A DNA stretch of 63,084 nucleotides, filler included, from Patellaria atrata CBS 101060 (Eukaryota), in the NCBI GenBank assembly GCA_010093705.1. It is 5 parts of 5 records of this genome, joined end to end, with 100 filler letters (N's around TTAATTAATTAA, not from the genome) between each part and the next. Parts side by side here need not be neighbours in the genome. Positions count along the whole stretch, not along the records: positions 1 to 29,533 come from MU006106.1; 4 more parts are not named here. One strand, written 5' to 3'. Below are positions 1-57,600 of the stretch, piece after piece. Position numbers and translations under genes: made by a program. The number at the start of each line of letters is the position of its first letter. The stretch's first letter is position 1. The notes under the pieces are model-generated. The model was not told the origin of the DNA and made no database searches. It saw only the letters and a program-made list of their open reading frames with translations.

Positions 1-589
1 GTTGCTGTTCGAAGCGAGTGTTAAGATACAAACAAAGATGAAGTGGATCGGTTAGCTTTATGAATGCCGAGTATGTAAGTTGTATAATACAGTCAGTCCT
101 GGGCTGTATAACTAAGTGTATAGAAGACAAGTAGAGAGAAGATGTTGTACGGACTACGGAGGAGTGTATTACACACCTTCCTGTTTCGGAGAGCTTGGGA
201 TGTGAGAGAGAGGGGAGCTCTAAGGTAGAGCTACCTTTATGCTGGAGTGGGGTAAAGAGTACAAGGGGGTGACCTTTTGAGGTATATATTGAGTAAATTC
301 AGCATTTTGATCTGGTACTGTACCTCTCGAAGCACACTTCAGAGCCAGAGACCCTCGTTTGATATTTACATTATTGACTGAATGAATGCTTATCTATCTC
401 ATGCTAATGTAGGTATGAGTCTTTTCGTCACAGTCGGAATCAGCAAACCACTGATTTGCACATGCTTTTGTGCTGCCTTTGATATCATACCTTCGTAGAA
501 ATACCAGTTCCTGAGTGTTCCCTCACTGATATGACCTCTCTCTAACTCTGCTCTTAGTAGGATCCTTCTGCTCTTCTCTCATTAGTCTC

Positions 590-3313
590 CTATCCCATCC
601 ATCTAACCCTCTCGCTTTTAAGAACATCCACCAGACCAACCGGCAAGAGGGACTTCTCTCCCAACTGCAGACCTCCAAACCTCTCAACCAAATGCCCGGC
701 ATACAACTGAACGATCCAAGCCCAATACGGCTTCTTCGCCTCAGCATGCCAAGTCAGGGTTGTGGGCAGAGTTGAAAACGCCTTCTTAACATCTGCTGTC
801 TCCTCGACCGTCTCTTCTCCTGGGACGGCGAGCAAGAAGCTGAAGGCCTTGGATAAGTGCGTAGAAGTCTCTTCCTGATACCTGGTGAATTCTTCGAACG
901 TCATGAAAGGTTCGTCGGATTCCGATTCAGATGCATCCTGAGGGCGGATGACACGCGAGCGCCTCTGCTGGCTAGCCAACTCACCCTTATTCCATTGCTT
1001 CTTGAGACGGTCATACTCGTCTGTCTCTTCCTCAAATGCCTGATCGATTCGCTTTGTCACGTTTCGAGGAGAAAGCTTATAGCTTGTGTACAAGGTGACG
1101 AATGGATTGCGAAGTTCCAGTCCTCCTAGCTCCACGGGAAAGTAGAAGAAACCATCTGGGACATGTTCAGCACCAAACCTTTCCTTTAGCATACCACGTA
1201 GATAATCCGTGACGTTTCCACTGCCTGTATCGGAGAAGAGTTTCAATTGGATGTGCTCGAATGTCTCGATCACCATATCGAGATGCTTACGTCCAAAACA
1301 GTTCGCGGGTTGTCCAAAATTGGTACTGAAGAATCGAGAGACATAACTATTCCAAGCTTGAACCCACGCAAAAACACTACGGCAAGCTCCCAGTTGAAGA
1401 CGCAGCTCAGCAATGTGCGTATCCACTTGTTCTCTGTCGATGATCCAACGACCTTCCACCGAATCGAGATATAAGAAGCCCCATCGGATCTTGCCACTGG
1501 GAAGTGACGTAGGAACTTTGGCATTCTTCTTCTTCGGATCGTCAACAATTTTCGTAGCGCCGGTCTTCTCCTCATTGAGTTCCATACCCATGATGGTAGA
1601 GAATTCTTTCAGGGCGTTCCAACCGTCAACGACAACACTCTCCTGACCCCAAAACCACAGATCATCATGGAACCGGTAGATGTTCGCTCCCTTTGTTCGC
1701 TTGTTCATGGCGAAGTCAAGGCAAAACATAACAGCCTCACCGAAAGCATCACTGAGAACGTGGCTCATGGGGATACCACACTTCCGGATCTGCGGTTGAG
1801 CATCTGGTCCATCCTGTACAAACACTACCGGCGAACTAAGAAACCTTTGAAAAAATCGCAACCATTTACCAGGGACGCCAAAGAATTTCAATACAGCGAA
1901 GATAGTATCATGCGGCAAAGATGGACCGAACCACTTGAAGTCCGACTGTAGAATGTTGAATTCGCCGTATATCTTCGTATTTAGGAGCATCTCTGCTGTA
2001 ATAAGGCGCAACATAGACTGTTTGATGGCTAGGGGAGTTTTCGTATCGTCCACTCCTGAGTCGGTCTCATCATTGTAATCGCGCGGGGTTAACGAGGCGC
2101 TATCCGGTAACTGTGTCATGAAGTAGTTCTCTTGATACATCGCCCTCCTCATGTTCCGTACAGAGTTGGTCTCAAGTCTGCTGTCACCCAAGAAATACTC
2201 TCGTCTCTCTTTGCCCTTCTTACTAATCGAACGGTAAGGAGACTGGGTCCATGCTCCGGAATGATAGAACTTAATAAAAGCGTCCTTCAATGCTACGGCC
2301 CAAGTAGTTCCAATGAAGTGAAGGAGGATAGCTTGATGAATCTCCTCGTCCATGAAGGCACGATACTTCCCGTTTAGCTGTCTACGCATCTGCATTGGTA
2401 CAGGTGATGGTTCCCATTGCCACTCATCTAGACTGTCCAGATCCATGTTCAGGACATCGACCATTTCACTGAGAACAGTAGTCCTAGATTGTAAGTCTAC
2501 AAGTGCTTCTCGCTTTTTACCAACGAAGAGATCCGCTTTCAACACTCCTTTGATGCATATTTTGAGTTTATCGATGGTAAATCTCTCATGAGAAGTGACG
2601 ATGCGGTCAGTCTCATAGTCTTCCTTCTTATCCTTGAGATCAGATTTGAAATCCATTACTTTCTTCATCGAATCTCGTAACTCTTTGAGTGGCGTCTTCT
2701 TCACCTTCTTAGATTGCAACGTAGATCCAAACAGCTCGTCGAGATATTTCTCAATCTTGCTTTGGTCGACCTTCTTCTCGGTGAAAGCATAAGACTCCCA
2801 TTGCTTACGTTGTTCATGCATCTCTTCGCGTCCAACGTGGCTAAAGGTCGAGGAACCGCTGTCACTGTCCGAATCAGAACCGTTACCACCAGCTTGGGGA
2901 TTCTCGGCGTCGGACGGAGTCGTCAGAAGCGCATCATTTGGGTTTTTGATCCATTCGGTGACAAGATTTCCGAACAAGGAAGCATATTCGTATTTCAAGC
3001 TCTGAATATCTAGACCATGTTCTAGTTTTGCTTGCCAATCTTTAAGCATGTGAGGAGATACGGAAGGATCATAGTGAGATTGGCGTATAAAACGGTCGAG
3101 ATTCTTAGCTGACAGCCCGATTTGTCGCATGTCAATGTTGTAGTCGTCATACCCGTCCAAGAGTTTGCAAACCTTGCTACGTTGGTGTGGAGCTGCGGCA
3201 ACGGCATCCAGGATTGACTTCTTCTCCGATTCATACTTCTCACGTTGATCGGCCAGCTTACTTAATTTCCGCTCGGTAACATGATGAAGAGTGGAAAGAA
3301 CTGCTGCGGCCAT
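590..3313 (-). CDS. rvt: Cellular reverse transcriptase-related protein (rvt family), 907 aa, intronless
   Basis: Single uninterrupted ORF with strong start context (CCACCATGG). RT motifs in order: LQSDFKWFGPSL, GIPMSHVLSDAFGE, catalytic YRFHDDLWF (FHDD codons at 1661-1672), LNEEKT, WGFL. N-terminal coiled-coil-like region, long insertion before the first catalytic Asp and a C-terminal YFPVELGGL motif. No gag, integrase, RNase H, LTRs or RIP damage, and it lies among housekeeping genes. Confidence 0.9.
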   Translation of the reverse strand: MAAAVLSTLHHVTERKLSKLADQREKYESEKKSILDAVAAAPHQRSKVCKLLDGYDDYNIDMRQIGLSAKNLDRFIRQSHYDPSVSPHMLKDWQAKLEHGLDIQSLKYEYASLFGNLVTEWIKNPNDALLTTPSDAENPQAGGNGSDSDSDSGSSTFSHVGREEMHEQRKQWESYAFTEKKVDQSKIEKYLDELFGSTLQSKKVKKTPLKELRDSMKKVMDFKSDLKDKKEDYETDRIVTSHERFTIDKLKICIKGVLKADLFVGKKREALVDLQSRTTVLSEMVDVLNMDLDSLDEWQWEPSPVPMQMRRQLNGKYRAFMDEEIHQAILLHFIGTTWAVALKDAFIKFYHSGAWTQSPYRSISKKGKERREYFLGDSRLETNSVRNMRRAMYQENYFMTQLPDSASLTPRDYNDETDSGVDDTKTPLAIKQSMLRLITAEMLLNTKIYGEFNILQSDFKWFGPSLPHDTIFAVLKFFGVPGKWLRFFQRFLSSPVVFVQDGPDAQPQIRKCGIPMSHVLSDAFGEAVMFCLDFAMNKRTKGANIYRFHDDLWFWGQESVVVDGWNALKEFSTIMGMELNEEKTGATKIVDDPKKKNAKVPTSLPSGKIRWGFLYLDSVEGRWIIDREQVDTHIAELRLQLGACRSVFAWVQAWNSYVSRFFSTNFGQPANCFGRKHLDMVIETFEHIQLKLFSDTGSGNVTDYLRGMLKERFGAEHVPDGFFYFPVELGGLELRNPFVTLYTSYKLSPRNVTKRIDQAFEEETDEYDRLKKQWNKGELASQQRRSRVIRPQDASESESDEPFMTFEEFTRYQEETSTHLSKAFSFLLAVPGEETVEETADVKKAFSTLPTTLTWHAEAKKPYWAWIVQLYAGHLVERFGGLQLGEKSLLPVGLVDVLKSERVRWMG

Positions 3314-3682
3314 GGTGGAGGAAGTAATTGTCTGTCTGTACGATCAATCCCGTTAAGCTTGATGGGAAGAGTTGGAATAAGCTGGAATTGGTATATCTGG
3401 GGTAACCGATCCTGGGAGTGTTTCCTCGATGCAACGTGCAGATTGACTCCTAAGATCAAGTTCCTGATGGTATAATCTCTTTTATGAGTGTGACACACGG
3501 ATTAGGCGGTCAACAAGAGGTTCCGTGATGAGAATGTCCTCAAGGGAATTGGAAAGGTGCTGTAGAGTAGAGTGGAAGAAAGAAAGGTTTGAGTTAAAAT
3601 ATAAGAGATGTTAAAATGTATTGATTGGAAAGGAATTTTTTATGTACATTTCCCGCTAAGGCAGCAGTGACAACACATTGAG

Positions 3683-3689
3683 TGAGTCA
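3683..3689. promoter_or_regulatory. Candidate Gcn4/CPC-1 (AP-1-like) response element upstream of rvt
   Basis: Perfect TGAGTCA (TGACTCA on minus) 370 nt upstream of the rvt ATG. It is about 40 nt upstream of a TATA-like CATAAAAA (minus, ~3636-3644), which is followed by a pyrimidine-rich tract on minus. Confidence 0.45.
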
Positions 3690-3976
3690 GGTGCGGTGAG
3701 CCTAGCTGAGCAACTGCGGTGTCTACATTTTATGATGAAAAGAGGAATTAATCGATGCCTAAAAGGAAGATGTACTCTCTGAGAGGAGGTGTACTCCACC
3801 CGATAGTATTCGTGGATGGAAAGAAACCTAGAAGAACTATAGTGAAAGTGGGCGAGGGTGAGAATCTGATCAAAGCACGGTGCATAACTCATAATTCTCT
3901 CCCTTATTTACCAAAAAATACATCAACCCCTAAAAAGAAGCGAAAATCTGCATGAAAAAATGCTAAAAAAGAAAAT

Positions 3977-4067
3977 TGTCGCTTGTGTGGATCGAACACA
4001 CTACCTTCAGATTTGATGATTGAAGTTATACTTCAGTCTGACGATCTCCCAAATGATCTAAAGCGAC
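3977..4067 (-). tRNA. tRNA-Phe(GAA) with 18-nt intron (4013-4030)
   Basis: Minus strand folds as a cloverleaf: acceptor GTCGCTT/AAGCGAC plus discriminator A, D stem GATC/GATC, anticodon stem TCAGA/TCTGA with CT-GAA-G, intron after nt 37, T arm GTGTG-TTCGATC-CACAC. An oligo-T Pol III terminator follows (A run at 3965-3975 on plus). Confidence 0.93.
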
Positions 4068-4627
4068 TAAATGATTGTTGAGAATCGTTTTGAGTACAGT
4101 ACTACATAAATTTCATAATAGCTGCCTAAACCCCGCTTTTGAACCATGGCACACATTTAGCCAATAGTGCAGTGATCTGAAAAAGGTTCACCGACAAGTC
4201 CCCGGCAAGATATACAATACAAAGTTACTTATCCTCTGTGGATGGTGGAGTATCCATATCTCGTATCAAGGCATCGAGTACATTTTTACCATTCTTCACT
4301 ATTGAACATTTGAAATAGGGATTTTACACTCCATCATAGTCATAGATTGATGACATAACTTAAAAGGGTGTATATATATGATTTCCCCTGGAAGATTCAC
4401 ATTATAGCACTCTTTTACCATAGCCATGCACATGAGAACCATTCTAAACTGTACTTCTATACGGGAACAATTTGGTCTCTCTCAATGTGGAACCTCTACA
4501 CCCACCTTTAAGCCAACGAGTCAACACCACCCCTGTCATTCACGCACTCGAAGCCTTATCAAAACACTCCTCTCCAACACGCTCAATCGGATGCAAAAGA
4601 CCGAAACCACAAACCATCTCTATGCTT

Positions 4628-5812
4628 TTAAGCCGCGGCAGGTGCGGGCGCGGGTGCTTTCCCCTCCAGTGTCGTTTCACCTTGCGGTGCAACTGTGCTC
4701 TCCGTCTGAGGAGCCGCCTCAGCCGACTCAGGCTTATTCTCAATAGTGTCATCGTCCCGCTTAGCCCACTTAGGAGGTGTATAGTATTCCCGCTCCTGCC
4801 AAGGGCCTGCATCGCTAAGCATGCAACCCTCAGCGCACTCGCACGAACCGCCAAACGCAGTAGGAAGATTCTCCTTGGGGATTTGCGCGAGCAACTCCTT
4901 CTCGTAGCCGGTACCTAAAATGTGGATCTTCTCCACAGTAACGGGGTCCAAGAACCTCTTGACGAAGTTGAAGACGGCGCCGAAACCCCAGGGTGCGTTG
5001 ATGACGTAGAGCTTTCCGAGCCGCTCGGGATAGTAGTTTTGTGATATCGCCGAGACCTTTCCCAGGTAACCGTACACTGAGCTAGCTTTTGAGATACCCA
5101 CCCCTTTAAGGTCCATTATGGAGCAGGAGGTTTCGAGCAGGTGTCCAGCCTTGCGACAGCAGGCTGGGAGACGAGGATCAGCCATCTTCTCGTACTCGCA
5201 CACGAGATTCTGTATCATGCGTTCTTCGGTCGTAATTTTGTACATAGCCGTCAGATCGACTTTGCCCAGTTGCTCGATGTATACAGGGCGTCCATCCTTG
5301 AAGCTGTTTAGCAAACGGTCTATCCGAAATTCGGGTGTCCCACCTTGTCCGTTTTATGGTAATACTGGGGATAATACTGAAAAACCTTTGGTTTCTCCTT
5401 ATAATCAAATGTTCTGACTAGATTCTCAACACCACCTCCAAATTCACTCCGCCACTTCTCAGAGTCGATAAACCTAATAGAGTAAGCCCCGCCGCAGCTG
5501 ATATGGACCAAAAATTACATTTGTTTGGAGAGTTCGACGTTGAATTTTCGTGCTCGTAGGAATCTGAGCTAGCCGTACTATTAGAATTTTAATCCACGTC
5601 GGGGGTAGCTGAGCGAACTCTACCATGGTCATAGTATCCAGTCTCTCAGTATAACCGGCCTGCTCGAGCAGTGATCTCAGCTGGAAAACTTGCGCATCCT
5701 GCTCGGGTGTTGTCCAGCCAGGATGTCCATTGTGTGGGACGGGGCTGTTCGTTGGGAAGTCGTAGTTATCGTACTTAGGATCTTGCTTCAAGGGGTTTTC
5801 GACAGGTGCCAT
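4628..5812 (-). CDS. SEC14: Sec14 cytosolic factor (PI/PC transfer protein, CRAL-TRIO); exons 5624-5812, 5519-5568, 5344-5473, 4628-5296
   Basis: [51 protein letters not shown] and LPTAFGG motifs reassembled across GT-AG introns. Confidence 0.93.
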
Positions 5813-6249
5813 GTTGTATTACGCTTGCGGAAAGAAAAAAGAATAGCGGAATAGTAAGTAAAGAGTGCCTGCTCCCTCTAAGATATTTGCAGGGAGACTG
5901 TGAGAGTGGGGAGCTGAATGTTGCTAGGGGAGCTAGTCTAACGTAAAGTGTAGGTGTGATGTGTTTTGAGGATGAGGTTGCCGAGAGAGGACGTTGAAAA
6001 AACACAACCAACGTTCTCGCCAGATGATGCATAGCTGCATCATGATTGGATATACTTTTGCATGCACCTCGATATCATGTGAATTCCTCAACACTTATGA
6101 TTTCCATGTCTTAATTAGTCAGACGATAGTTAGTAGCACCATACGGATATTATAACAAGTCACAGGCACACATATACTGCACAGTAGAGCTATGGAATTT
6201 TGAAGCATAACAAGTGCAAGTCATATTGCCTATATGGAAATGAAGATGT

Positions 6250-9215
6250 CTATCTGCCACCGATCGGACTTAGAGGATCGCGTTGACTGCCAGGGTTACT
6301 ACCATTCGCACTACCAGACCCGCTGCCATTGCTCCCTTTTCTCTCATAGCCCACAGGTGCGTTGTGAGTTCCAAGGAGAGCGTCACGTTCGGGGTCGTCA
6401 AGGTCAGGTGCAGTGAATCCGCTTACACCCGATAACATTGAGCTTGAGCGACCTCTCCCCTCACGGAACTTGGGTGCGGGTGTCCCTTGAAAAACATCCG
6501 TACTCGGAGGTAATCCGAATGTCTGATAGTTCAATGGTGGGAATTGAGGAAGTGAGTTGCGATTGCTGGCTCCGGGAAGGTTCCCTTCCGGTGTGGTTGG
6601 CACGGAATTAGGATAGCCAGTCGCTTGCTGAGAGAGCAGGTTTTCGACATGACTTATCTGCTGAAACATGCGGTCATTAGCTAAGTTCACATCATGTAAC
6701 TGACTTTCGAACTGCGCAATAGACCTGACATATTGTTTTTCTTGATCACTACGAGAGGCAAGTCGAACGGCCCGTAACTTTTCCCTTCGTGCTTTTTCGT
6801 CCATATCTTGAGTAGTAGCAGCCATAAGAGTAGCGTATTGCTCGTTAAGTTTGGTTTGACGAGCTTGTAATCGATCACGCTTTTGGATGGCGGACGCGAT
6901 CTCAGCTTGAATGTGAGCGACCTCGGTATCAGCGGTTCCTTTGCATTGGCTATAGTCCTCGGAGACGGCAGATCTATGGGCTCTCTCCTGTTTCCAAGCT
7001 TCTTTTTTAGCAGATGCTTCCTCGATTTCATTTCTAGGTATTTCTCCGAGGGTATCTATCTGGTGACATATATCAACGGTAGACTCTTCTGTTTGTCGGA
7101 TCGTTTGCTTGAATTGGAGAACCTTAGATTTTTGTCTATCGTCAGTACCGCCAGATGAAGAGACACGGTTATTTAAATTATCGACCTCTTTCCTTAAGGC
7201 TCCAGTGGCGCCCTTGTGGTCTTTCCGGTTACGTTTCTGCCGGTTTCGGTTCTCTGACAGCTTCTGTTCCGCTGCCAAGATAGAGTTCTTGAGAGTTGTT
7301 GTAGGAGATGACGGACGGAGAGATTGATGTGTTGTAGGGGCAACGACAGAAGCTGTAAATGAGTTAGGAGATCAGTTCTCAAGAGAAGGTTTCAAGTTAA
7401 TAAAGAGAGTATGTACTGACCCGGCTCAGTAGCAGGTGCCGACTGGGTAATGAGGCTCGCAGAGTATATTGGAGTATCGTCTGACATACGAACGAACTCG
7501 ATGTAGTAACTCGAGAGGGGCGTAAGACCGAAAATTTCTCCAGAGTATGCGTCTACGTTATCACCACTGTAACTGCCATTTGGATGTATCTCGTTGATCC
7601 GTGTCGAGCTCCAATCTGCACCATTGACTCGCACATAGAATGGTTTCGACTTATCGATACCAGATCCTAAGTTTGCACCATGTCTCATACCGTCGTGGAC
7701 AGCCATTGACATTTCTCTGAGAAGGTTTAAGCCGAAAGATATATCGGTAGAACCAATAGCGGAGATCCACACGCGATCCTCCTCTTGGATGAAGTTTGCA
7801 TTTCCAACATGATATGCATCCGTTGCGTTTGCCTCTGCGGCATCACTAGAGGCCTGACTATGCTCCATTTCTTTGTAAACAGTAACTTTTGTACTTGCAA
7901 GTGCAGCCCAAAATGGCTGCTGACTACGAACTTGATTAGATTGCTTGCGCTTCTTCTTCCCACCAGTGCTCCTTTCTTTAGCTTCACGTGCAGCGGGAGA
8001 TGGGCCTGGCGGCCTTCCATCCGTGCTGGAACTGGAGCCCGCGTCCGTCGTATTGGAATCTAGAGCACTGAGGTTAGCTCTAAGCATCTGACCAGCTGCT
8101 GCAGCTTCGGGGTCGTTTTTCTTGTCAGGGGAGTACCCAGACAGACTTTCTCTGTTTGCTAAGGACCGGCGGATGAGCCGCACAACTCCTTGCGTTAAGA
8201 TATGTACTCCGAGTAAGCTCCGAAGCCAACCATGGGGAACATTGAAAGTGTCTGGGTAGTCTGACATTGTCGGCGGGTGTTTAGAAACAGGAAAACCGAT
8301 CTTGTGAAAGCCGACCCATAGGAGCTGGAGACCATAATGGCGAACCGGATTGTAGCGGAGTGTGTGAGAGATGATGATTATAACAACGCAAAGAAACAGG
8401 CTGTTCGTAGAGCCGCCTGTGCCGGCCGCAGCACCCCCGAGGGAGATTGCGATAACAGCCTGTGCGAGGTCCAAGGTGATATTTTGCACTGGGACGCTCA
8501 ATACAAGCCAGAATATGAGGATTATGATATCGGCAAAGATGATCGTGGCCATTGAGGGTGTACCACCAGCACCTTGGAACATGTCATTAAGAGAGGGTAG
8601 GGCGGAGAGAGATGTACCGGTTGACGGCGGTACAAACGTGAGTGTTGCGAAGAGACAATGGATGATGGTAAGGAAAGTCGGGGGGAGCTGTAGAAGAATG
8701 ATGAGGATAGCAATGACGTCTCGGAGAGGACATGAGGCGATAATTGTAGAAGCTAAGGTGAACACATTGCCTGCATTGGCGATGCCACTCCCCTTGACTC
8801 CATTGATGTCCATCCTGCTGGGTATGGGGCGCGAAACTGGGTCCAGTATATGGTTGATGTTTCCGTTGGTGTAACGATAGGAGTCCTGACCATCGAAAGA
8901 CAGTTCTGAATATGCTCTCGCCCTGGGATCGAGTTGAATATTGTCGGGAGGGGAGCCATTCGCAGTAGAGGAGGAGCTACTATCATGATGGAAGCCATTC
9001 GGTACATCATCTAGGTTGCCATTACCCAGAGTCAAATGCTGTTCTAAATCCGAGGACGGAAGCGGCGGCGTAGGTGTCTGGAGCCGTCCATTTGTATGGC
9101 CGTTCAGCTTTGGGTTTGATTTTTGCCTGTGTATACGTTTGCCAGGTGCAGCCAGTCCGCTTTCGTGTCGCTTGTCGTGTTGATTCGCCTTGGGCCTCAC
9201 TTTCGTCGACGGCAT
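6250..9215 (-). CDS. acrB: Probable ubiquitination-network signalling protein AcrB (TM segments plus C-terminal coiled coil); exons 7421-9215, 6250-7352
   Basis: N-terminal KQ/RQKSN-type motif, CPLRDVIAILIILLQLPP, QQPFWAALASTKV, FYVRVNGADW, coiled-coil C-terminus. GTCAGT...CAG intron at 7353-7420. Confidence 0.75.
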
Positions 9216-29024: not shown

Positions 29025-29577
29025 TGGAATTGGGGGTAAGGGAGGTAGGTAGACGCTTTAGGGGTGGAGGCGGAATGTCCTCAATATTAAGAAGCGATGA
29101 ATCATGAACTTACAAATATAGGCTACTGTAAAATGACTACAACCGATGTCACCCATGATGAGAATGCTGTCCCTGAGTCTCACATGCGTACGTACCTTAT
29201 TTGTGAAGATTATTTTATATCCACCAGCTCAGTCCTTAGATATACCTCAGAAACTCCCACCAGGAACTAATGTAACCTCCGACGCAAAGAATAAAACAGC
29301 ATCTTCTCGTTAGCAATTCCGCACTTCGAGTCGGGGATGAGTGCGAAGAGCGCTCAGTCGGACGTTAACAGAAAATTTATAAGGACTGTGAAGTCGATAG
29401 ACGGGTCATTTACTCCATCCCCACAGAATCCTACACGCCCTCATGGAAACCCCCTTCAACCTCATCCCAGCCAGATATCCACACAAAATTCCACTCCACC
29501 CCCTTTCCCCTAAACCTCACCTCCCCCCCTCCCNNNNNNNNNNNNNNNNNNNNNNNNNNNNNNNNNNNNNNNNNNNN

Positions 29578-29589
29578 TTAATTAATTAA
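29578..29589. other. Artificial scaffolding linker TTAATTAATTAA within N runs (also 35706-35717, 50923-50934, 59299-59310)
   Basis: Identical 12-mer with stops in all frames, flanked by short N blocks at four places. Confidence 0.9.
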
Positions 29590-29632
29590 NNNNNNNNNNN
29601 NNNNNNNNNNNNNNNNNNNNNNNNNNNNNNNN

Positions 29633-32600
29633 NGCAGAGGTTTTGTCAGTCCGTCTGCCGGCATCTCAAACGTAGGCTTCCATTCTACGTTTATCCGGTC
29701 ATGCTGAACCTCTTGCCTCAGCCAGAGGTGGTGGATATCCACGTGTCTGAGTTTAGTTGTCAACTGAGGTTCAGGTGCTTTGAGAAGCCGTATCGTCTGT
29801 TGATTGTCGCACCAAATTGAGCTTCGGTGCTCTGGATCAAAGTTGATCGCTTCAAAGAAGCGGTTCCACGCTACCATCTCCCTGGTAGCAAAGCTGAGAG
29901 CTAACAGCTCAGCTTCTGTGCTTGAGGTGGTGACTGTCTTCTGCTTTGAGGCCTGCCAGTCAATTGGTCCACCGAATAGTGAAAAGAGGAACCCCTGAGA
30001 GCTCCGTCTGTCGAGGTTATCTGCAAATGAGGCGTCAGAGGAGCTTGTAAACACCCTTCCAGTCGACGTTCCGTCGTACTGAATTGCAAGGTGCTTGTGG
30101 TGCTTCAGGTAAGCCAGCACTTGATTTGCAGCTTCTAGGTGCTTACTTGACGGATTCTTAAGGAATTCCGATAGCTTGCTATGGGCCTTTGCGACGTCTG
30201 GTCTGGTTATGATGCTCAACCAGCCAATAGAGCCGACCCGAGTGTTGTATGCCGATATACGGCTTGGTGGTGCTTCGTCTGAGACGTTCTGAACGAGCTC
30301 TTCTGAGGGAAGGGGAGTATGTCTCATCCGGCAGTTTTGAAGCTCAAATTTGTTTATGAGCTTGTCAATATAGGCATCTTGACACAGCCATATCTTCAAA
30401 TTTGGTCTGTCGCGAACGATACGTATGCCCAAAAAGTACTGGATATCTCCAAGATCTCGCATGGGGAATTTTCCCATCACTTTGTCTTTGAATTCGTGGA
30501 GCTTCGTCGCAAATTGAGAACGTGCTAATAGCACTATGTCGTCCACGTAGAAAAACACTACTATTGTGCCATCAGTAAACAAGCAATTGACACCAGGAAC
30601 CAGCACCATTCCCAGCTCTTCCAGAGCCGTTGAAAACAACTGATACCAGAGCCGAGGTGATCTCTTCAGCCCGTACAACGCTTTGTGAAGCTTCATGACG
30701 AGCCCCTGCTTATGGAATCCGTCTAGATACCTGCAGTAGACTTCGTCATCAAGATCACTGTTGACAAAGGCATTGACAGCGTCTAGCTGTACGGCTTCGA
30801 GATTAAAAGCGGCTGCTATAGACAGTATGGCCCTGATTGTACGGGCGGTGAGAGTAGCTGCGTACGTGTCGAGTTCTATCTGGTGTAAATCGCCTCTGAC
30901 ACAAAGTCTTGCCTTTGTCTTTGTCAGAAATCCCTCTGCGTTGGTTTTGTACGTAAACACCCAAATAAGTGGAAGTATCTGCTTAGTACTACCGATACTC
31001 GTCGAGCTGACTGGCTCGTACGTGCCACGGCTCTGAAGCGCTGACATCTCCAGCTCCATAGCGGCGAGGAACTAAGCCCTGTAGGGGTGCTTCAAAACGT
31101 CCTTGTAGTATTTTGGGGGAGGTGGCAGATCGTCTTGATGAGTCGGCTTCAGGTCTGACAGCTGTTTAGCTACATGCTGAGCGTAGAATATAGCTGGATC
31201 GTCGAATTTGCGTGGTTTTCGGGCCCGTTTTGAGCCCTCTGGGAGAATGTTGGTTTCGGCCATCTGGGAGGAAATCTCTATGGCCCGTGGGGCCCGTTTC
31301 CGACGGGTATTTACCCCTGAACCCCTATTCTGACTGGTATGAAGCTCGCTTTGGATCTGCTGCTCCACTAGCTCTTCCTGTGTGGGTTTATCTTGCCCCC
31401 TCTCTACCTCTATTACCTCTCCTTCTTCATCTGTCCTTAAAGAAGACGACGATTGCCTCTGTCGTGGATGGTCGGAGAGTGATACGCTTGGCGGCGCGGC
31501 CTCGGGGTCTTCCATAGCATCAGCTGAATCCGTAGGGCCACTGAGACTCGTTTCTTGCGCTTCGTCAGCATTTCCAGCTGTTCTATCTAGTTGCTGTGGT
31601 TGTGCTGAGAGTTAAGGTGTTGAAGTTGGTGTTAAAACATGCGAATTTGACGGTGAGTCTGATGTTGGAGGTGTGTCTGGAGGGGGGGTAGGAAATGTCC
31701 CGGACTGGTCCACCCTTCCATCTTTGGCCTTGCCAACTGCTGTTTGCGTCGTCTGCTTCAAATTGCAAACTTGAGTCGCCTCAGCGTCCACGATATCTTC
31801 AAGGAGCACTGGTTCGTCAACTTCTTCAATTGTAGTGACCATAGGGGGAACTTCAAGCATAACGATCACCTCATCAGCTCTCTCACGTAGTAAATGACCG
31901 AAATCCAGCACTGTTGGATCATAGAACCGATCTTCGTCGAATTTGATGTCTCTGGAGCGGAACACCCGTTTCCTGCTGGGAACCCAGATTCTGTAAATAT
32001 TCGTGGAGTCGTATCCAACAAGATAACCAATCAGAGCTCTTGGCTGGAGCTTCTATAAATGTGGAATATGCTTGTCGAGTACGTATGCCCTGCAGCCGTA
32101 CGTTTTGAGGTGACTGATATCTGGCTTCCTGTCAAGGCTCAACCTCAGATGAGAGCTGAAAGGTATATTGCTGTATGTACATGAAGCTTAAACTTAAGGA
32201 AAGAAAGTAAAAGAGAGTATCAGAACAGCGTGAGCTGTTCTATTAAAGTAAAACATGACTAAGCTACTGGATCATGCATGCAGCTTAAACTTAAGGAAAG
32301 AATGTAAGAGAAAGTGCCAGAACAACGTAAGTTGTTCTATTAAAGTATAGCATAGCTAAGCCGATGGATCATCCAAGGCACTTATACCTATCGGGTCTAA
32401 CCCGTGACACTTCCGTCCGGTCACAAATTCAAAAGGAGTCTTCCAGTTGAGAGCTTTATGGGGAGTCCGATTGCTTATATAAACCACTGCTGCCACCACT
32501 TCTGGCCACAACTCCCACGGAATCATAGCATCTGTCGCCAACGTGCGTGCTTTGGTTAGTATCACCCTTCCAGAGCGTTCAGCACCACCGTTTTGGCCCG

Positions 32601-33357
32601 GTGTATCTGGAGCTGAAGGCTCTGCAACCGTTCCGGTCTCGTCTAACAGCTGTTGATGCATTTTTCCGAAGGACGTTTCGTTGTCACTATGGAATGTCTG
32701 AACCTTCTCTCCGAATTGAGTTTCCGTCCGTTTAAAGTACTTTCTATTGCTAATATTCGCAGCTAGCTTTGTTACTGACGTTTCTAGATCAATCCAGGAG
32801 GAGTAGATATCTCGGTAGTGTCCGAGATATCGATGGCCGTTGTAGCCAGGAGGGAAAGAGATGATGTCAAAGGACACTCTTTGGAAGATACGTGTTGCTG
32901 GATTCTCCAGCCCGCGTGGTCGTCTGCTTACCAATTCAGTTGCTTTTGAGACAGCACAGACTTCACACTCAATAGTAGATGGTGCTCGGCTATCTATTTC
33001 AGCTCCAACCACTCCGGTTGTTAAATGCTGAATTGCTTCTGGACCAGCATGGCCCATGATTCGGTGCCAACGTCTCGTTGTAGCACTGATTGGGGGTCTC
33101 GGATCCGTGGACTTGTAAGCCGCGAAAACAGATCCGGTGGGTTTGCTGACTTCTTTATAGTTCAGCAGATAGTGATTGCCTTTTTCCAGGACTTTGCACA
33201 TCTCGGTGCCATCGCTGAATTCAAGACAATCGCCTCGGTGGTTCCAGTAGATGCCACGCTTCTTCTTTATCAGCTCCAAGCCGACGACAGAGGCGTTGAA
33301 ATCCGGACAGAGATAAGCTTCTATTAAGTGGAGATTCCGTTTTCCTACAGGACCTTC
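29633..33357 (-). mobile_element. Degenerate Ty1/copia LTR retrotransposon pol (GAG-pre-integrase, integrase, RT, RNase H)
   Basis: WHRIMGH...CEVC, integrase FHSDNE...QNGGAER, KARLCVRGD, QLDAVNAFVN, LYGLKRSPRLW, FFYVDDIV, TEAELLAL, RHVDIHHLWLRQ, ADGLTKPL in INT-RT-RH order. Several in-frame stops. Interrupted by a solo LTR and truncated at both ends. Confidence 0.92.
32130..32409. mobile_element. Solo LTR (family A, 280 bp) inserted in the copia integrase region
   Basis: TGTCA...TGACA termini with 5-bp TSD CTTCC (32125-32129 and 32410-32414). Internal ~107-bp imperfect tandem duplication. Confidence 0.85.
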
Positions 33358-33694
33358 TGTGAGATTGTGGATAACTGAATATAGTCGCTTGATTCTCCGT
33401 ACAACTACGGATTCTATCTAGTGTTTATATAATGACAGACCACCTTATTGATTAACCCTTTGACGTCACGAAGCCTAGCTACGTAATCTCCAAATCAAGG
33501 CGAATATAACGATACTACCTACGTCAGATATAAAATAAGAGATGACATTAAAAGAGTGAGCTAATGTTATAGTTTTGATGATACTTAACCGATAAGTCGG
33601 AGCCGAGCATTTAGCTCTGAAAATCTCCAACACGAACTCCTGGAGATCCTGACGATCTTCCAACATAAGGCTATCGGGGATCAGCTATCTGACA
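33358..33694. mobile_element. Solo LTR (family B, 337 bp), complete copy
   Basis: TGTGAGA...TCTGACA termini. Near-identical copies at 35360-35661, 44127-44395 and 50979-51253. Flanks CCTTC / CCCAG do not match. Confidence 0.82.
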
Positions 33695-33935
33695 CCCAGG
33701 GTAGGTGGGATGTGTCTATGCACGCTAAAAAGTTCTCTGTCAGTGCACGGAGAGTGACGGAAGGTTAGGGCTGCCCTAGATCCGACGGGACCTGACGAGG
33801 TCGGCCGAAGTTTGCTGTCTGTGCACGCTAAAGTTCCATGTGTCTCTGCATCCGACGCTAAAACGTCATGTGTCAGTGCGTAGGTTTATGCGGCCCTGGT
33901 CCCGATGACCCAGCTTCATAAGTGCGACAACTGAT

Positions 33936-50878: not shown

Positions 50879-50978
50879 NNNNNNNNNNNNNNNNNNNNNN
50901 NNNNNNNNNNNNNNNNNNNNNNTTAATTAATTAANNNNNNNNNNNNNNNNNNNNNNNNNNNNNNNNNNNNNNNNNNNN

Positions 50979-51253
50979 AGTGTTTATATAATGACAGACC
51001 ACCTTATTGATTAACCCTTTAACGTCACGAAGCCTAGCTACGTAATCTCCAAATCAAGGCGAACATAACGATACTACCTACGTCAGATATAAAATAAGAG
51101 ATGACATCAAAAGAGTGAGCTAATGTTATAGTTTTGGTGATACTTAACCGATAAGTCGGAGCTGAGCATTTAGCTCTGAAGATCTCCAACACGAACTCCT
51201 GGAGATCCTGACGATCTTCCAACATAAGGCTATCGGGGATCAGCCATCTGACA
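50979..51253. mobile_element. LTR family B copy (truncated by gap)
   Basis: Matches 33420-33694 and ends ...CATCTGACA. Confidence 0.85.
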
Positions 51254-54200
51254 AGAATTAATACCCCGATAGCTCTATTATTTAACATTTATTCTCGATT
51301 TCTTCTCTTATTATCCACCTTCTCTTACGCTAATCTTTTCTTTACTCTCGACCTTAAATAGTCTCCCTAGCTTCCCTACTCCCGTAAACTTCTAATATTG
51401 CACGCCCTCTATCTATAATCTCTCTTCTACTATATCTCGTCTTCTATATAGCCGGCGGCCTTTTATACTACTTTAAGCGTGTTCCTTACGATAGTGCTTA
51501 TATATATTTATAATCCTTTAGTATATATAGCCGTATAATCGTATATCTACTATCTTTACCGTACACTTTATTCTATTATCGTGTACTAGTAATCCTAGGA
51601 CCGAAGCTAAGCTTAACGCTAGCTAAACCACCTAATTATCTATTTTAGTTAATCCTCTAATACCGGCTACGAATTAAGCGATCTCCCGCCTAGTTCTAAG
51701 AGTTAAGTGGCTATATCTTACTACTAGATACGTATTATAATATATTACTAGATATCTAACCTAGTACTCCCTATAGATAATAATACTACACTTTAATAAA
51801 ATAGTAAAGAGTTAATAGAATTAGTCTATATCACTAGGATTAATTAGTAAAATATTATATAGTAAAATATAGTCTAGTACCTTAATTTATAAATTATATA
51901 GAAGTAAAACTCTTATAAAATAGGTACGTCGTACTATAATTTAGAGGCTTATTTTATACTTAGCGCTTTAGATATATAAACTAGGAAAACTAAAATATTA
52001 CTCTAATTACTTAAGATTAAGGTGAACTAATAATAGAGGGTATATCTCGATAATTAGGTAAGATATTAAGGCTACGAGCGTATTAATAGATTCTTAAAGC
52101 TTACGCGTAGGATATTATTAACTTAGATTCCCGAAATTTAATAGTTTAGGGTATATATTATTTTAAAGAAAGATATAAATAATATATACCCCCTATCTTC
52201 GCTAGGCACGGGCTATAATTAAATAATATATACTATATATTATTTAGGGATTATAGTTAAGATCGTTAATTAGTATTATTAATACTTCTATTATTAGCTT
52301 TAATATAAAGTCTCTATTTAGGGTTTCTCGTTTTCCGAATCTAACTCTAAATTAGACTTTAAGCTTTAATACTCGTCTTTCTAGACTAACTTTATTTTAG
52401 TTATTTTCTTTAATCCTCGGTATTCTAACGCTTTATATCCGGCTTTACCGTAATTAAAGTAGTTACTTATAAACTTCCGAATAATTATAGTCTACTCCGT
52501 CACTTATAGTATTATAAATAAGATAATTTTGTTACGGCCACAAGTTGTAGGAACGTGTAGACAACGAGTGAGGGGAAAGTAGGAACACCACTCGGGAGAA
52601 CCACGGATGAAACCAGTAACAAAGGGGTCACGTGACTAGAAACTGTGGACGCAATGGACGCAAAGGACGCAAGGGGGGATCCACGTCCACCACGTCCAAG
52701 ACGTCCAGGTTATGGACGTAGTGGACGTAAAGGACGTAGAAGGAGATCTACGTCTAGAACGGCCACCACGTCCAAAAGGGTGTAAGCACCCCAAATTGAC
52801 TATAGAGGATAGGAATATTTAAGGACGGTCTTTCCCTTATGTATTTAGATTCTTCGTAGTTATTCTTACCATCAATCTTACCCATAGATTTGGATGTTAC
52901 GGTTTTGAACTTGACTTCACTTGTTACACTGTTTCCATACAGTACGTCTTGTCTCTTTGTGAGCATTACCCGAAGTCAAGGAGTCAGCAAGTTGTATCGT
53001 CAACTTGAAGTGCCTTTTGTTATACGTATCCTATCACTTTGCCAAACCTACCTTTATGGTTGACCACGTTAAGTGAGAAGCTAGGCGCGTTTCTAGACTT
53101 ATCCAGTTCCGTCTTAATAAGTATAGACTCCCGTTATAACAAATTTCTCTACTTTTTAATCGATATAAAGTTTTATTTATCGTTATTAAGATAGAAGTTA
53201 TTCTAATTAGTTTATTATATTTTTAACTCTCTTTATAAACCTTATTAGCTTTACTTAACCTTTCTAACTCTCGTGTCTATATTATAACTTTATTATAGTA
53301 CTTCTAAAAGTTAATTTTATCGTTATCTATAGCTTCCGCTATTATTAGCCTTAGACTATTATAAAGTCTATTATAAAGTTCCTCTTTCTATTAGTCGTAT
53401 AATAATTTAGCTTTATTAGCTAGTCGGATAAACGTAGACTAGAATTTTAGAAAGTCTATTAAATAGTCTTATCTTAACTTCTTTAATTTATCTTTAGCTT
53501 TTAGTCGCTTATTTAAATTCTTATAGATTTAATCTAGAAATCTTATTAACTTTATTAAGATTATATTATCCTCCTCCGATTTTAAGAAAGGATATATATA
53601 TTTAGTTACCTCGCTATTAATCTTTATCTTAATATAGGTAGTCTTTATTCTTTTATCTTAAAATTAGTCGCTATTAATATAAAGTTTATCGTTTATTTTA
53701 CTTTTCTACTTCTTATAAGTTAGCTTTTTATTATCGGTTAATTCTAATAGATTAAGGAACTTTTTTATCTTATTATTATCTTTACTTTTAAAGCTTCCGG
53801 TTAAGTCGACTATTCTAGCTTAATTATTATAATTATATAATATTAATAATTCTTTATTATTAGATTTATCGTCGAATTAGATACTCTTTTAATTTAGTTT
53901 AAACTATTTAGTTTATCTCTTTAAATTATCGATTTTATTTTAAAGATATTTTATAGTTTCTTCGTTCGCTTAATATATTTATAGCTTTAGCTATAAGTCG
54001 GGTATTATCTTATTAATAAGGTTTATTATCTTTCCGAGTTATATCTCTTAAGCTATAAGCTTCACTCTCGTATAAAGATACTTTATTACGAATTAATCTA
54101 AGTTTTTAGCTACCTATTTCTTCGCTTTATCGATTATATCGATATTTTAATCGTCTATAATAGTAGTATATCTAAGAGGCTTCTCTTCTTCTATTATTCC

Positions 54201-54667
54201 GGGGATTCCTCTTAGTAGATTCTATAGATCCACTTCTAAAATATCGTTAGTAATTTACTAGTTAACTACTTTTAGCGTTAATCTATATTAGTATATTTTT
54301 CCTTTTCCTTTTAATCTAATACTACTCTCTACTTCTAAATTTATAGTTAATTTATTACCTATTTACTTCGCTAAGATTATTAAAGATTTAACTATTTTAT
54401 TTAGTTTACTATAATATTTACTTCTCTAAATAATTTATATTCGTTAGTCTTAATCTCTTTTAAATATTAGGTTATTATTATTATTAGCGTTAATACTCTT
54501 AGATATTAGATATCTTATTATTAATAGAGCTTAGCTACTTATAAATTCTTAATTAGTCTGATAATTATTCATCGACTAGACTAATATTATACTTTAGTTA
54601 AAATATTATATCACTTTTCTAAAGGCCGTTAAAGGTGAACTTAATCTAGTATAATAATATAATATAG
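51254..54667 (-). mobile_element. Heavily RIP-mutated copy of gypsy family G1
   Basis: 52321-52529 and 53147-54667 align collinearly with 38529-40258, and the differences are almost all C>T or G>A. Confidence 0.85.
52530..53141 (+). mobile_element. Solo LTR (612 bp, TGTTACGGCCACA family) with AATTT TSD
   Basis: TGTTA...TAACA termini. AATTT at 52525-52529 and 53142-53146. Internal GGACG/CACGTCC short repeats. Confidence 0.8.
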
Positions 54668-57600
54668 TGTTACGGCCACAAGTTGTAGAAGCATGAAGAC
54701 CACGAGTGAGGGGAAGAAGGAACACCACTCGGAGGAACTACGGGTGAAACCCGTAGACNNNNNNNNNNNNNNNNNNNNNNNNNNNNNNNNNNNNNNNNNN
54801 NNNNNNNNNNNNNNNNNNNNNNNNNNNNNNNNNNNNNNNNNNNNNNNNNNNNNNNNNNNNNNNNNNNNNNNNNNNNNNNNNNNNNNNNNNNNNNNNNNNN
54901 NNNNNNNNNNNNNNNNNNNNNNNNNNNNNNNNNNNNNNNNNNNNNNNNNNNNNNNNNNNNNNNNNNNNNNNNNNNNNNNNNNNNNNNNNNNNNNNNNNNN
55001 NNNNNNNNNNNNNNNNNNNNNNNNNNNNNNNNNNNNNNNNNNNNNNNNNNNNNNNNNNNNNNNNNNNNNNNNNNNNNNNNNNNNNNNNNNNNNNNNNNNN
55101 NNNNNNNNNNNNNNNNNNNNNNNNNNNNNNNNNNNNNNNNNNNNNNNNNNNNNNNNNNNNNNNNNNNNNNNNNNNNNNNNNNNNNNNNNNNNNNNNNNNN
55201 NNNNNNNNNNNNNNNNNNNNNNNNNNNNNNNNNNNNNNNNNNNNNNNNNNNNNNNNNNNNNNNNNNNNNNNNNNNNNNNNNNNNNNNNNNNNNAGTAGGA
55301 AAGCGTATAACAGACCTAGACACGATGTCGTCAGCCGCAGCCAACACGAAGACGGATAAAGAACATATCCAAGCGTTGTATAAACGCATCAGCGAACTCG
55401 AGAATGAGGGAACAGTCCAAGAACTTAGGGATCAGCTCGAACAACTTACCGTACAGTTGCTTTCACCACAAAAGCGAACCGCGAAAGTCAAAGAACCCGC
55501 ACCATACGATGGCAAACGAGACGAGCTGAGAGGATTCTTAACCCAGGTGAGGATCTATCATAAAAGAATAGGGCTAACGGACGACAGTGAACGTGTACTC
55601 GATGCATCAGCGTACCTTAAAGGAGACGCTTTGGAATGGTTCGAACCCATTGCACGAGACTATCTTGAGAACAGTGAAGAACACCAGGAAGACGAAACAG
55701 TTGAGATCTTCAAGTCGTTTCCAAAGTTCGAAGAGACGCTAAAGAACGTCTTTGGGGAAGTCGACGAACAACAGGCAGCAGAAAGAAAGCTTCAAGGACT
55801 CAGGCAGAAAGGGTCAGCTTCGAAGTATGCGACTACATTCCAGCAGGCAGCATCAACATTGGGTTGGCCTGATGAACCACTGATGATTGCTTTCTATCAA
55901 GGTTTGAAGGAAGAAGTAAAGGACGAGTGGGTTCATTATGAGAGACCAACGACCATGCAGGACGCAGTGACCTTAGCAGTTAGAATAGATAATAGGTTGT
56001 ATGAGCGTAGACAGGAAAAGGGAGGACGGAAGAATGTTGTGGTTGGGTACAGAAAGAAGGCAACAAGGGCCACAAACAGACAAGATCAGGGAGACCCGAT
56101 GGACCTCGACCGACTATAACAGACAAAATAAAAGAAGTCGAAGAAACAACGACAGTTCACCCAAGAAGAAAAAGAACGCTTCGCGAGCAGAGCGTGTCTA
56201 CAATGCGGAGAGGTAGGACACTTCAAGAGAGACTGTCCACAAAAGGCACCATCACCCTCACGACACAACCGACGTATGCAACTCAGAGTCATGCACCTGA
56301 CACCACCATCACCAGTCTCGTCACTCGAAGAAGAAGAGATTGAAGAAACGCCACTACCATACCAGACGGGGGTAAGTAGACCACCGACACCATTTCCAAC
56401 AGCAGGGAACTGGCTAGGAGAGGAAACACTCCGACAACGTTTAGACCATCAACAGTGTTGGGCGTGCGGAAACGTACACGCACACACAGCATCAGAATGC
56501 CCAGCACAGAATCAGGGTCAGAGGATCAGAGTACAAACATCTAACGGACCAAGCCTCATATACCGGATTATGGAACAACAACGTCAGCTTGAACAAGAGT
56601 TCCGAGATTGGGAACCGATCGAACCCGAATCCGATGCCGACGTGATCGTCGAAGAACAACAATTGAACCTTGCACCAAGAGCAGAAGACTGTTTAGCCTT
56701 TCGATGGATGCAATGTAAAGAGGGTGACTGTTTATACCATAAACAGCAGAGGGCTACAGCAAAGTTCAGGGACCGAGACCCTACACATATGCATTTACCT
56801 GAAAGCGAGTGCCAGGTAAAAGGGTGCAAAACACACGAAGGTGAAACGAAAACACTTGAAAAGAACCGAGGACTCGAACCACCAGTAGGCGACTGTGGAA
56901 AGTATGACAGTTTCAGTTGCACGGACAAACTGAAGTGCAGACGACATTACTGGGCGCTAATCCACGCAGAATGTGTAGCAGCAACGTGGGTAGATTGCGA
57001 ATATGGCACAGATTGCTGGTACCATAGAGGATTAGAAGAAGAGTTCTATAAAGGAAAAGTGTTCCCATGGGAAACAGAAGGGTTTAGAGACGAAAGAGAA
57101 ACCATCGAGCAAGCCACTAGATGTGACGCGACAGACTTTGGGCAATGCGCCATTAGAGGGATGTGGTGCGATTACCATACCGCGCAAAGATGGAGAGCAG
57201 GAATCAAAAGTAACCCAAGTCACAACGCAGTTATTAAACGAGAGTGTCGAGAATTGGAATGCGAGGAACATCGTAAAGGTCCATATTACGACCGACACGA
57301 CAGACTACACTGGACCGTGTGCGTAGAATCCGGTTGCCCGGTACATGGCTATGCAAAAAACTACTAAGCCACTCGAGATAGGAACGATCGAGAAGTATGG
57401 CTCCTAAGTTCCTTAGAACCCTACGAAGTAACGACAGAACGCTTTGGGTAGACGTTACCATACACGGCAAGAGAACGACAGCGCTAGTTGATAGTGGCGC
57501 CACCGATTCGTTCATCTCACCCCGATGGGTAGAAAAGAAGAGTATACCTTACACGAAACTTGAAAATCCAGTCCCGTTGCGACTAGGAAATGGCGAAGGA

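Follow-up and report, generated by a model that had tools for sequence, protein, structure and literature searches.

An intact rvt gene with a tRNA gene upstream

The window analyzed here is a 63-kb (63,084-nt) stretch of Patellaria atrata DNA. Near its start, at positions 590..3313 (minus strand), lies an open reading frame (ORF) of 907 codons plus a stop, which we identify as an rvt gene from the ORF call, a match to the RT_UG37 profile and 768 homologues. The preliminary description of the locus had reported an intact 907-aa ORF, and it is indeed unbroken, with an ATG start that is consistent with the N termini of 26 aligned homologues. The description also called the gene intronless, which is now in doubt because a public model, Patellaria atrata hypothetical protein P0001 (890 aa), equals the product of this ORF minus 17 residues (133 to 149). 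The corresponding 51-nt in-frame GT..AG stretch (2865..2915, minus strand), which the public model removes, is thus a candidate intron. The residues in question fall within a low-complexity linker that AlphaFold2 models with low confidence (pLDDT of <50 for residues 127 to 162), and a linker of comparable length is retained in the homologues of a 27-sequence alignment. A 31,869-nt DNA contig, probably the source assembly, covers positions 1..6500 without differences.

A Pfam search of the 907-aa protein at E≤1 gave nothing above noise, and no RVT_1, endonuclease, zinc-finger, or RNase H domain; an NCBIfam search likewise returned only noise. Two transposon ORFs from the window, run as a positive control, gave strong Pfam matches (RVT_1 plus RNase H, and RVT_2). 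The transposon reverse transcriptases (RTs) of the genome had been described as riddled with stops, but those in the window are instead broken into a few long pieces. Neither direct nor inverted repeats of at least 20 nt were found in 1..9000, and the 63-kb window holds no second rvt copy. The indices of repeat-induced point mutation (RIP) were normal in the rvt coding sequence (TpA/ApT, 0.62; [CpA+TpG]/[ApC+GpT], 1.17) compared with 1.45 and 0.39 in the RIP-like DNA at 51000..55500. The earlier statements that the gene carries no retroelement domains or long terminal repeats and no RIP damage therefore hold. With no other domains, flanking repeats, RIP signature, or second copy in the window, the locus appears to be a nonmobile host gene.

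Upstream of rvt and on the same strand lies a tRNA-Phe(GAA) gene (3977..4067, minus strand) with an 18-nt intron at 4013..4030. The gap between this gene and the rvt ATG is 663 nt, in agreement with the distance of about 660 nt given before. ARAGORN called one tRNA gene at these positions. Excision of the intron at 37/38, where nuclear tRNA introns lie, leaves a 73-nt tRNA-Phe(GAA) cloverleaf with the loop CTGAAGA, G20, and A73, and in the folded precursor the anticodon pairs with the intron. G20 and A73 are among the established Phe identity elements. The Cys(GCA) identity given by ARAGORN when its intron option was used, with the intron at 34/35, was rejected because it requires a noncanonical intron position. 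Just 3′ of the tRNA are T runs (TTTT C TTTTTT; 3965..3975, minus strand) that resemble a Pol III terminator. An Rfam search of 1..8000 at E≤1 matched no RNA family, tRNA-Phe included, and this miss may be due to the 18-nt intron.

The protein belongs to the rvt/UG37 family

The rvt genes are reportedly the subject of work by Gladyshev and Arkhipova from 2011. We ran the profile search against rvt, Abi, and DRT reverse transcriptases that the preliminary description had proposed, and RT_UG37 came out far ahead (E = 6.5e-65, 217.6 bits; residues 241 to 776 on profile positions 171 to 691 of 778). The PADLOC runners-up were AbiP2 with 19.3 bits, a weak match over residues 511 to 590 (motifs B to C; E = 9.7e-5), and Drt6 with 15.7 bits. 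Since UG37 is equated with rvt in Mestre 2022, the gene's earlier placement as an RT-like host gene of the rvt class stands. Among 7999 candidates scored, 768 were homologues at E≤1e-3, the named ones including Lojkania, Rhizodiscina, Glonium, and Lepidopterella; representatives numbered 1291 at E≤1e-3 and, with the stricter cutoff of E≤1e-30, 492.

The P. atrata protein resembles other rvt/UG37 proteins in its length of about 900 aa, in having a helical domain at the N terminus and a further domain at the C terminus, in an RT core whose motifs 2 and 3 are separated by a long insertion, and in the absence of retroelement features. Pfam RVT_1 weakly matched 22 of the 27 aligned rvt members (best E, 2.5e-9), whereas the P. 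atrata copy lies below RVT_1 detection at E≤1. Nothing of substance sets this copy apart from the family; the upstream tRNA-Phe is specific to the P. atrata lineage. The locus is an ordinary, intact member of the already described fungal rvt/UG37 family and no new kind of system.

Domain organization and predicted fold

The AlphaFold2 model of the protein had a pLDDT of 77.3 and a pTM of 0.78. Residues 1 to 126 (2936..3313, minus strand) form an N-terminal helical domain with helices at 2-40, 44-57, 69-78, and 87-123 (pLDDT, 80 to 94). On the strength of these helices and the literature, we regard this domain as a putative coiled-coil multimerization region; Mestre 2022 gives the N terminus such a role, citing Yushenova 2018. 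A complex prediction of self-association for residues 1 to 126 scored 0.00, which argues neither for nor against it.

The RT core spans about residues 300 to 625 (1439..2416, minus strand), as judged from invariant columns, palm strands, and RT-fold matches. According to our own assignment of the motif labels from the alignment and model, motifs 1/2 lie near R310-R318, A at D458, B at G513-E526, C at F548-D551, D at K583, and E at W611-L614. The R310-R318 block and D458 are about 135 residues apart; this stretch is the long 2a insertion of the family and carries conserved helices at 323-350, 365-375, 385-397, and 427-449. The catalytic residues sit on modeled palm strands 451-459, 546-548, and 551-556. 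The FHDD catalytic loop noted previously was confirmed at residues 548 to 551 (1661..1672, minus strand): D458, R547, H549, D550, and D551 are invariant in the 27 sequences and F548 is present in at least 90% of them, and the P. atrata protein retains all invariant columns of the alignment. Judged from these aligned sequences, FHDD is a family-wide signature and no peculiarity of this copy, and the catalytic core, with the motif A Asp and motif C xDD both present, is intact at the level of sequence. The remainder of the protein, residues 627 to 907 (593..1435, minus strand), is modeled as a C-terminal helical domain comprising the thumb and an extension.

A PDB sequence search with the protein gave only noise (best E, 0.63). 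A Foldseek search with the model gave 51 PDB matches at E≤1e-3, and among the matches listed all were RT, telomerase, or Prp8. The best structural matches were mobile non-LTR reverse transcriptases, at 10 to 13% identity and with no solved rvt structure in the comparison: VIA Z scores were 17.4 to 19.9 for R2, 14.4 to 15.8 for LINE-1 ORF2p, and 13.2 to 14.4 for group II intron RTs. Superposition on R2 and LINE-1 ORF2p covered 414 to 508 residues, running from the N-terminal extension through the fingers, palm, and thumb into the C-terminal region, and the alignments to R2 proteins extended to model residue 895 to 897. These matches are what would favor reading the ORF as the RT of a non-LTR retrotransposon, possibly a degenerate one, but we find that hardly credible. 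The identity to R2 and LINE-1 is 9 to 13%, and the protein has no RVT_1 match at E≤1 and no endonuclease, zinc-finger, RNase H, or DNA-binding domain; it matches RT_UG37 strongly and specifically; and the gene is free of flanking repeats, has no second copy within the window, and lacks the RIP signature that other DNA in the window resembles.

Conservation of the orthologues points the same way. Pairs of related rvt genes with dS of 0.05 to 0.9 gave dN/dS ratios of 0.11 to 0.36, a range that refers to the relatives, the closest DNA-bearing locus being 57% identical in protein to the window's gene. An uninterrupted full-length coding sequence was found in 33 of 63 related loci and in the window's gene (n = 34). 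The dN/dS comparison had been suggested in the preliminary description, and its outcome indicates that rvt relatives are under purifying selection, with length conserved.

Synteny of rvt and tRNA genes

The co-oriented tRNA had led to the proposal that rvt and tRNA-Phe function together as a module, with either the tRNA or the leader of rvt serving as template, primer, or sensor RNA in the manner of bacterial DRT systems that act with an adjacent noncoding RNA. The tRNA-Phe gene is real and only 663 nt away, the rvt model aligns with the noncoding RNA (ncRNA)-dependent DRT9 and DRT2 RTs (Z of 11.7 to 12.9 and 12.7, respectively), and there are the weak profile matches to AbiP2 and Drt6. However, when we carried out the proposed synteny check, none of the 51 related rvt loci with at least 1000 nt of upstream DNA had an upstream tRNA. 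Only one tRNA was called in all 63 loci, a questionable tRNA-Gly (intron of 147 nt) that lies some 5 kb downstream of rvt in L035. Apart from short promoter motifs, the upstream regions of 24 promoter clusters could not be aligned with one another, no Rfam family was matched in 1..8000, and a window with many genes and one tRNA is certain to place that tRNA next to some gene. The polymerization attributed to rvt in a 2023 meeting report is nontemplated.

Because synteny is absent in the 51 related loci, the module is largely refuted, by the very outcome that the preliminary description had named as counting against it, and we regard it as very improbable. The rvt protein shares the RT fold with DRT2, DRT9, and DRT10 (as seen for DRT9 and DRT2) but differs from them in having no conserved adjoining ncRNA or tRNA (51 loci; Rfam on 1..8000) and in its published nontemplated synthesis. 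The tRNA-Phe(GAA) gene is functional-looking, but from its distribution it looks like a chance neighbor of rvt, probably a separately transcribed Pol III gene that came to lie there in the P. atrata lineage.

A Gcn4/CPC-1-type site in rvt promoters

A motif scan together with the related promoters revealed a site of the Gcn4/CPC-1 (CPRE) type, TGAGTCA/TGACTCA, at 3683..3689, at −376 from the rvt ATG. TGA[CG]TCA occurs once in the 63-kb window, compared with 6.6 matches expected, and that single match sits in the rvt promoter. In the −500 to −100 region of rvt genes no other 7-mer is as widespread as TGA[CG]TCA, which accounts for 23 sites spread over 15 of the 24 independent promoter clusters, versus 1.7 sites in shuffled sequences (maximum of 6 in 1000). 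Its density there, 2.39/kb, compares with 0.05 to 0.125/kb elsewhere in the same loci. Positive clusters have one to three such sites per promoter between −100 and −500; promoter distances are approximate, as the ATG was extrapolated where the locus match begins at residue 2 to 8. One site lies inside a conserved 66-nt block shared by two loci (L001 and L006), and the motif is present in two of the three loci L034, L037, and L039. The canonical motif is absent from −500 to −100 in 9 of the 24 clusters, including the two closest relatives (the L009/L010 cluster and L011).

Other bZIP factors are also able to bind TGACTCA. In PMC7289440 and PMC3199737, it is the motif bound by CPC-1 and the CPRE in a Dothideomycete. 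The rvt promoters thus resemble those of Gcn4/CPC-1/CpcA regulon genes in having TGACTCA-type sites (15 of the 24 clusters), but the likeness is by predicted sites, and rvt is not an amino acid biosynthetic gene. A search of the literature, with Gladyshev and Arkhipova 2011, Yushenova and Arkhipova 2018, and Tian et al. 2007 outside its scope, gave no link of rvt to CPC-1 or Gcn4, and the term "reverse transcriptase" was absent from the supplements of PMC12345223 and from file 48 of PMC10191625.

Proposed starvation control and the question of a defense role

The background given in the preliminary description (nontemplated and protein-primed synthesis, induction by starvation or a translation block, and membership of the UG/Abi family) was found in print. 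The 2023 meeting report describes rvt as induced by amino acid starvation and ties its function to amino acid starvation and antibiotic stress; induction by translation inhibition has also been published. Mestre 2022 places UG37 in the UG/Abi family, with protein priming common to rvt and AbiK.

This kinship is a ground for supposing that RVT is primarily an antiviral polymerase, directed against mycoviruses or retroelements, a eukaryotic counterpart of Abi and DRT systems for which stress induction would be secondary. AbiK, Abi-P2, and AbiA share the broad UG/Abi family with rvt, and both protein priming and untemplated synthesis are reported for both sides in Mestre 2022, to which the weak AbiP2 and Drt6 profile matches may be added. 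Against this, the same paper rates the defense association of UG37 as inconclusive, and the AbiP2 profile match is 19 bits versus 218 for UG37. AbiK, Abi-P2, and AbiA are not among the structural matches listed, which still leaves room for similarity, and rvt, unlike the Abi systems, is a gene of a eukaryotic host outside any phage context. The adjoining genes are not of an effector or defense type, the upstream neighbor being a Sec14-like CRAL/TRIO gene, and the HET-NB-ARC-TPR gene lies at a distance of 44 kb. The element conserved in the promoters is a site for nutritional stress, and amino acid starvation and antibiotic stress are what the meeting report links to rvt function. A defense role for rvt is speculation, and we consider it unlikely to be the primary one.

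The best explanation overall, and in our judgment a very probable one, is a nonmobile host rvt gene of a Dothideomycete, with proposed starvation-type promoter control and with the tRNA-Phe gene nearby by chance. The site at 3683..3689 fits the published induction of rvt by amino acid starvation. By analogy with other family members described in the literature, amino acid starvation or a translation block would induce the gene, and RVT would multimerize, self-prime, and polymerize nucleotides without a template. We infer that Gcn4/CPC-1/CpcA, the factor of general amino acid (cross-pathway) control, would drive rvt transcription through TGACTCA sites 200 to 400 nt upstream of the ATG, sites that many fungi conserve in their rvt promoters and of which the P. 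atrata promoter has one, at 3683..3689. Whether rvt is a direct member of this regulon, so that uncharged tRNA sensed by Gcn2 would lead to an untemplated polymerase, with a second conserved promoter motif, TGAGGAC, marking an additional input, is to us an evenly balanced question.

On this view, any connection of tRNA to rvt would lie in regulation (uncharged tRNA to Gcn2 to CPC-1 to rvt), and physical adjacency would play no part in it. RVT would be one of the effector arms of the integrated stress response. Dependence on CpcA/CPC-1 would connect a puzzling polymerase with a stress pathway that is well understood and leave fewer conditions in which to look for its in vivo product.

The TGAGGAC motif emerged from enrichment in the promoter clusters and is present in P. 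atrata at 3536..3542 (minus strand). It accounts for 19 sites in 7 of the 24 clusters at −500 to −100, a density of 1.98/kb versus 0.10/kb in other flanks.

The window gene belongs to the rvt family

The window carries an uninterrupted 907-codon ORF on the minus strand (590..3313), whose start codon agrees with the N-termini of 26 aligned homologues. Its top BLASTP match (98% identity) was P0001, a hypothetical protein of 890 aa already public for Patellaria atrata CBS 101060, a Dothideomycete of the order Patellariales. P0001 is the same as the window ORF in every residue but lacks residues 133-149. The public gene model removes as an intron an in-frame stretch of 51 nt with GT..AG ends (2865..2915, minus strand). 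This stretch, which contains a branch-like CTGAT site, sits in a variable acidic/serine linker, and the linkers of homologues are closer to the unspliced length.

Among 7999 candidates scored, 768 homologues were found at E ≤ 1e-3, and the 120 listed were mainly fungal proteins of 850 to 950 aa. At the same threshold there were 1291 relatives among 50%-identity representatives, the named examples extending to Basidiomycota and Eurotiomycetes. A Pfam scan of the window RVT protein returned nothing real, even at E ≤ 1; RVT_1 touched 22 of 27 aligned relatives (best E, 2.5e-9). A PADLOC profile search gave a specific match to RT_UG37 (E = 6.5e-65, residues 241-776), with AbiP2 (9.7e-5) and Drt6 (1.3e-3) far behind. 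UG37 corresponds to the rvt elements, described by Mestre et al. (2022) as single-copy genes of eukaryotes and a few bacteria, with an N-terminal coiled-coil and protein priming in vitro. Judged by its sequence, the window gene is therefore an rvt gene, in agreement with the preliminary description. It adds one more ordinary orthologue to a family known since 2011.

The RVT protein has an intact catalytic core and a reverse transcriptase fold

In an alignment of 27 sequences, R547, H549, D550, and D551 were invariant, as were D458 (motif A) and K583 (motif D), and F548 was present in at least 90%. FHDD is thus a signature of the clade and no special trait of the window copy. Between the motif 1/2 block and D458 lie some 135 residues, which match what Arkhipova (2017) called the "big insertion loop 2a".

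In an AlphaFold2 model of the window RVT (pLDDT 77.3, pTM 0.78), the N terminus forms long helices, the palm has the strands expected of it, and the C-terminal domain is helical. Foldseek found 51 PDB matches at E ≤ 1e-3, all those listed being RT, telomerase, or Prp8 entries. VIA-align ranked R2 proteins first (Z 17.4-19.9, 414-465 residues), followed by LINE-1 ORF2p (14.4-15.8) and group II intron RTs (13.2-14.4), and further down DRT9 (11.7-12.9), DRT2 (12.7), DGR RTs, and G2L4. Identities were 9-17%, and since the PDB holds no rvt structure, the ranking speaks for fold and not for membership. The window RVT is a member of the rvt family with an intact catalytic core and an RT fold.

The locus shows no mobile-element features and its relatives are under constraint

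The rvt locus lacks the features of a mobile element. Pfam found no endonuclease, RNase H, integrase, or gag domain in the window RVT, while transposon ORFs elsewhere in the window, serving as positive controls, matched RVT_2 (29637..31071), rve (32359..33417), zf-CCHC (56132..57364), and RVT_1 plus RNase H (57928..59250). There were no direct or inverted repeats of at least 20 nt in 1..9000, and tblastn found no second rvt copy within the window. RIP indices were normal in the rvt coding sequence and RIP-like at 51000..55500. The earlier claim that the gene has neither retroelement domains nor RIP damage was thus borne out.

We collected 63 metagenome loci encoding rvt relatives at 28-60% identity, in 41 of which the rvt match lies in a single uninterrupted frame. 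When only frames that open with a start codon and reach 840 aa were kept, 34 full-length coding sequences remained, 33 from these loci and the window's own. Pairs with unsaturated dS gave dN/dS values of 0.11-0.36 (NG86), a range that describes the relatives and not the window gene, because the locus nearest to it is only 57% identical. In some loci (L018, L045-L047, and L049; also L022 and L055-L057), only 24-52% of the match is in one open frame; these are copies with introns or broken copies. Several distinct rvt loci come from records whose names begin alike, which may reflect paralogues or the presence of more than one fungus.

The adjacent tRNA-Phe gene is not a conserved neighbor

The only tRNA gene that ARAGORN detects in the 63-kb window (3977..4067) has the orientation of rvt and lies 663 nt upstream of its ATG. 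With introns allowed, the gene was called as Cys(GCA) with an 18-nt intron at 34/35, a noncanonical position, and we set this call aside. Nuclear tRNA introns lie between positions 37 and 38, and cutting the same 18 nt out there yields a 73-nt tRNA-Phe(GAA) with the anticodon loop CTGAAGA, G20, and A73. The precursor folds into acceptor, D, and T arms plus an anticodon-intron helix, and T runs follow directly 3′ of the gene. Both the ORF and the tRNA are therefore what and where the preliminary description had placed them.

That description had also proposed the tRNA, or the gene's own leader, as RNA partner, primer, or sensor of RVT. With introns allowed, a setting that recovers the window tRNA, ARAGORN found no tRNA upstream of rvt in any of the 63 loci; 51 of them carry 1000 nt or more of upstream DNA, and most carry 6000 nt. 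The sole call, a questionable tRNA-Gly with an intron of 147 nt, came from locus L035, some 5 kb downstream of rvt. No Rfam family matched in 1..8000 at E ≤ 1. Since rvt has no conserved tRNA or noncoding RNA neighbor, an outcome that the preliminary description itself had named as refuting its proposal, the adjacency looks like chance; the window's single tRNA gene must adjoin some gene.

rvt promoters are enriched in a putative CPC-1 site

We took the 1-kb upstream regions of the window gene and of 46 of the 63 loci, the other 17 having under 1 kb of upstream DNA or a match that misses the N-terminal part, and grouped them into 24 clusters that share no blastn match of at least 100 nt, with one representative each. 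In an unbiased k-mer count, TGACTCA/TGAGTCA ranked first of all 7-mers at −500..−100, with 23 sites in 15 of the 24 clusters, compared with 2 sites at −1000..−500 and a mean of 1.7 (maximum, 6) in 1000 dinucleotide shuffles. Across the 23 related representatives, its density at −500..−100 was 2.39/kb, peaking at −200..−399, against 0.05/kb in coding sequence, 0.125/kb further upstream, and 0.089/kb downstream. Loci L001 and L006 have one such site within a 66-nt conserved block, and two of L034, L037, and L039 have one. No canonical site was found in 9 of the 24 clusters, the two closest relatives among them.

TGASTCA is depleted in the window, with 1 site against 6.6 expected (SD, 2.7) and at least 1 in all 100 shuffles. 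This one site (3683..3689) lies at −376 of rvt. The next gene upstream of the tRNA, encoding a CRAL/TRIO Sec14-like lipid-transfer protein (4631-5818, minus strand, as rvt), has its 3′ end facing the tRNA, and the site can therefore serve only rvt.

TGACTCA is bound by CPC-1, the Neurospora Gcn4 orthologue (PMC7289440), and is the CPRE of the Dothideomycete Leptosphaeria maculans (PMC3199737). The enrichment is consistent with the responses of rvt to amino acid starvation and to inhibition of protein synthesis noted in meeting reports of 2023 and 2012, respectively. We suggest that CpcA/CPC-1 would directly activate the window rvt gene under amino acid limitation. Multimerization, protein priming, nontemplated polymerization, and stress induction have been described for rvt family members, and in members other than this one stress relief needs the catalytic residues (Mestre et al., 2022; 2012 and 2023 meeting reports). 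Our literature search, which lay outside the key rvt papers, found no account of promoter-motif conservation in rvt, and a prior report in N. crassa is possible. TGAGGAC is a second enriched motif, with 19 sites spread over 7 of the 24 clusters (1.98/kb versus 0.10/kb), at −100..−500 and often several times per promoter; in the window it lies at 3536..3542. We know of no factor that binds it. The 2011 rvt paper reportedly found NTPs to be preferred, with Mn2+.

Other features of the window

An open frame of 1162 aa (47442-50930, plus strand), about 44 kb from rvt along the window, has HET and NB-ARC/NACHT domains and many TPR repeats, and is by its domain content a fungal NLR-like gene of the heterokaryon incompatibility type. 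Copia-like remnants (RVT_2, rve) occupy 29534-35761 and gypsy-like remnants (zf-CCHC, RVT_1, RNase H) 50879-59354, each split into a few long ORFs; they are flanked by paired 44-N runs 12 nt apart at 29534, 35662, 50879, and 59255. In the composition profile, 37331-38273, 43212-44126, 46037-46458, and 54759-55293 look like AT-rich dips but are in fact N runs of 943, 915, 422, and 535, across which all six frames read open. The G+C content is 30.5% at 50800-54700, overlapping the segment with RIP-like dinucleotide indices (51000-55500), and only 2.9% at 59200-63084, the last 3.8 kb or so of the window, which is real sequence.
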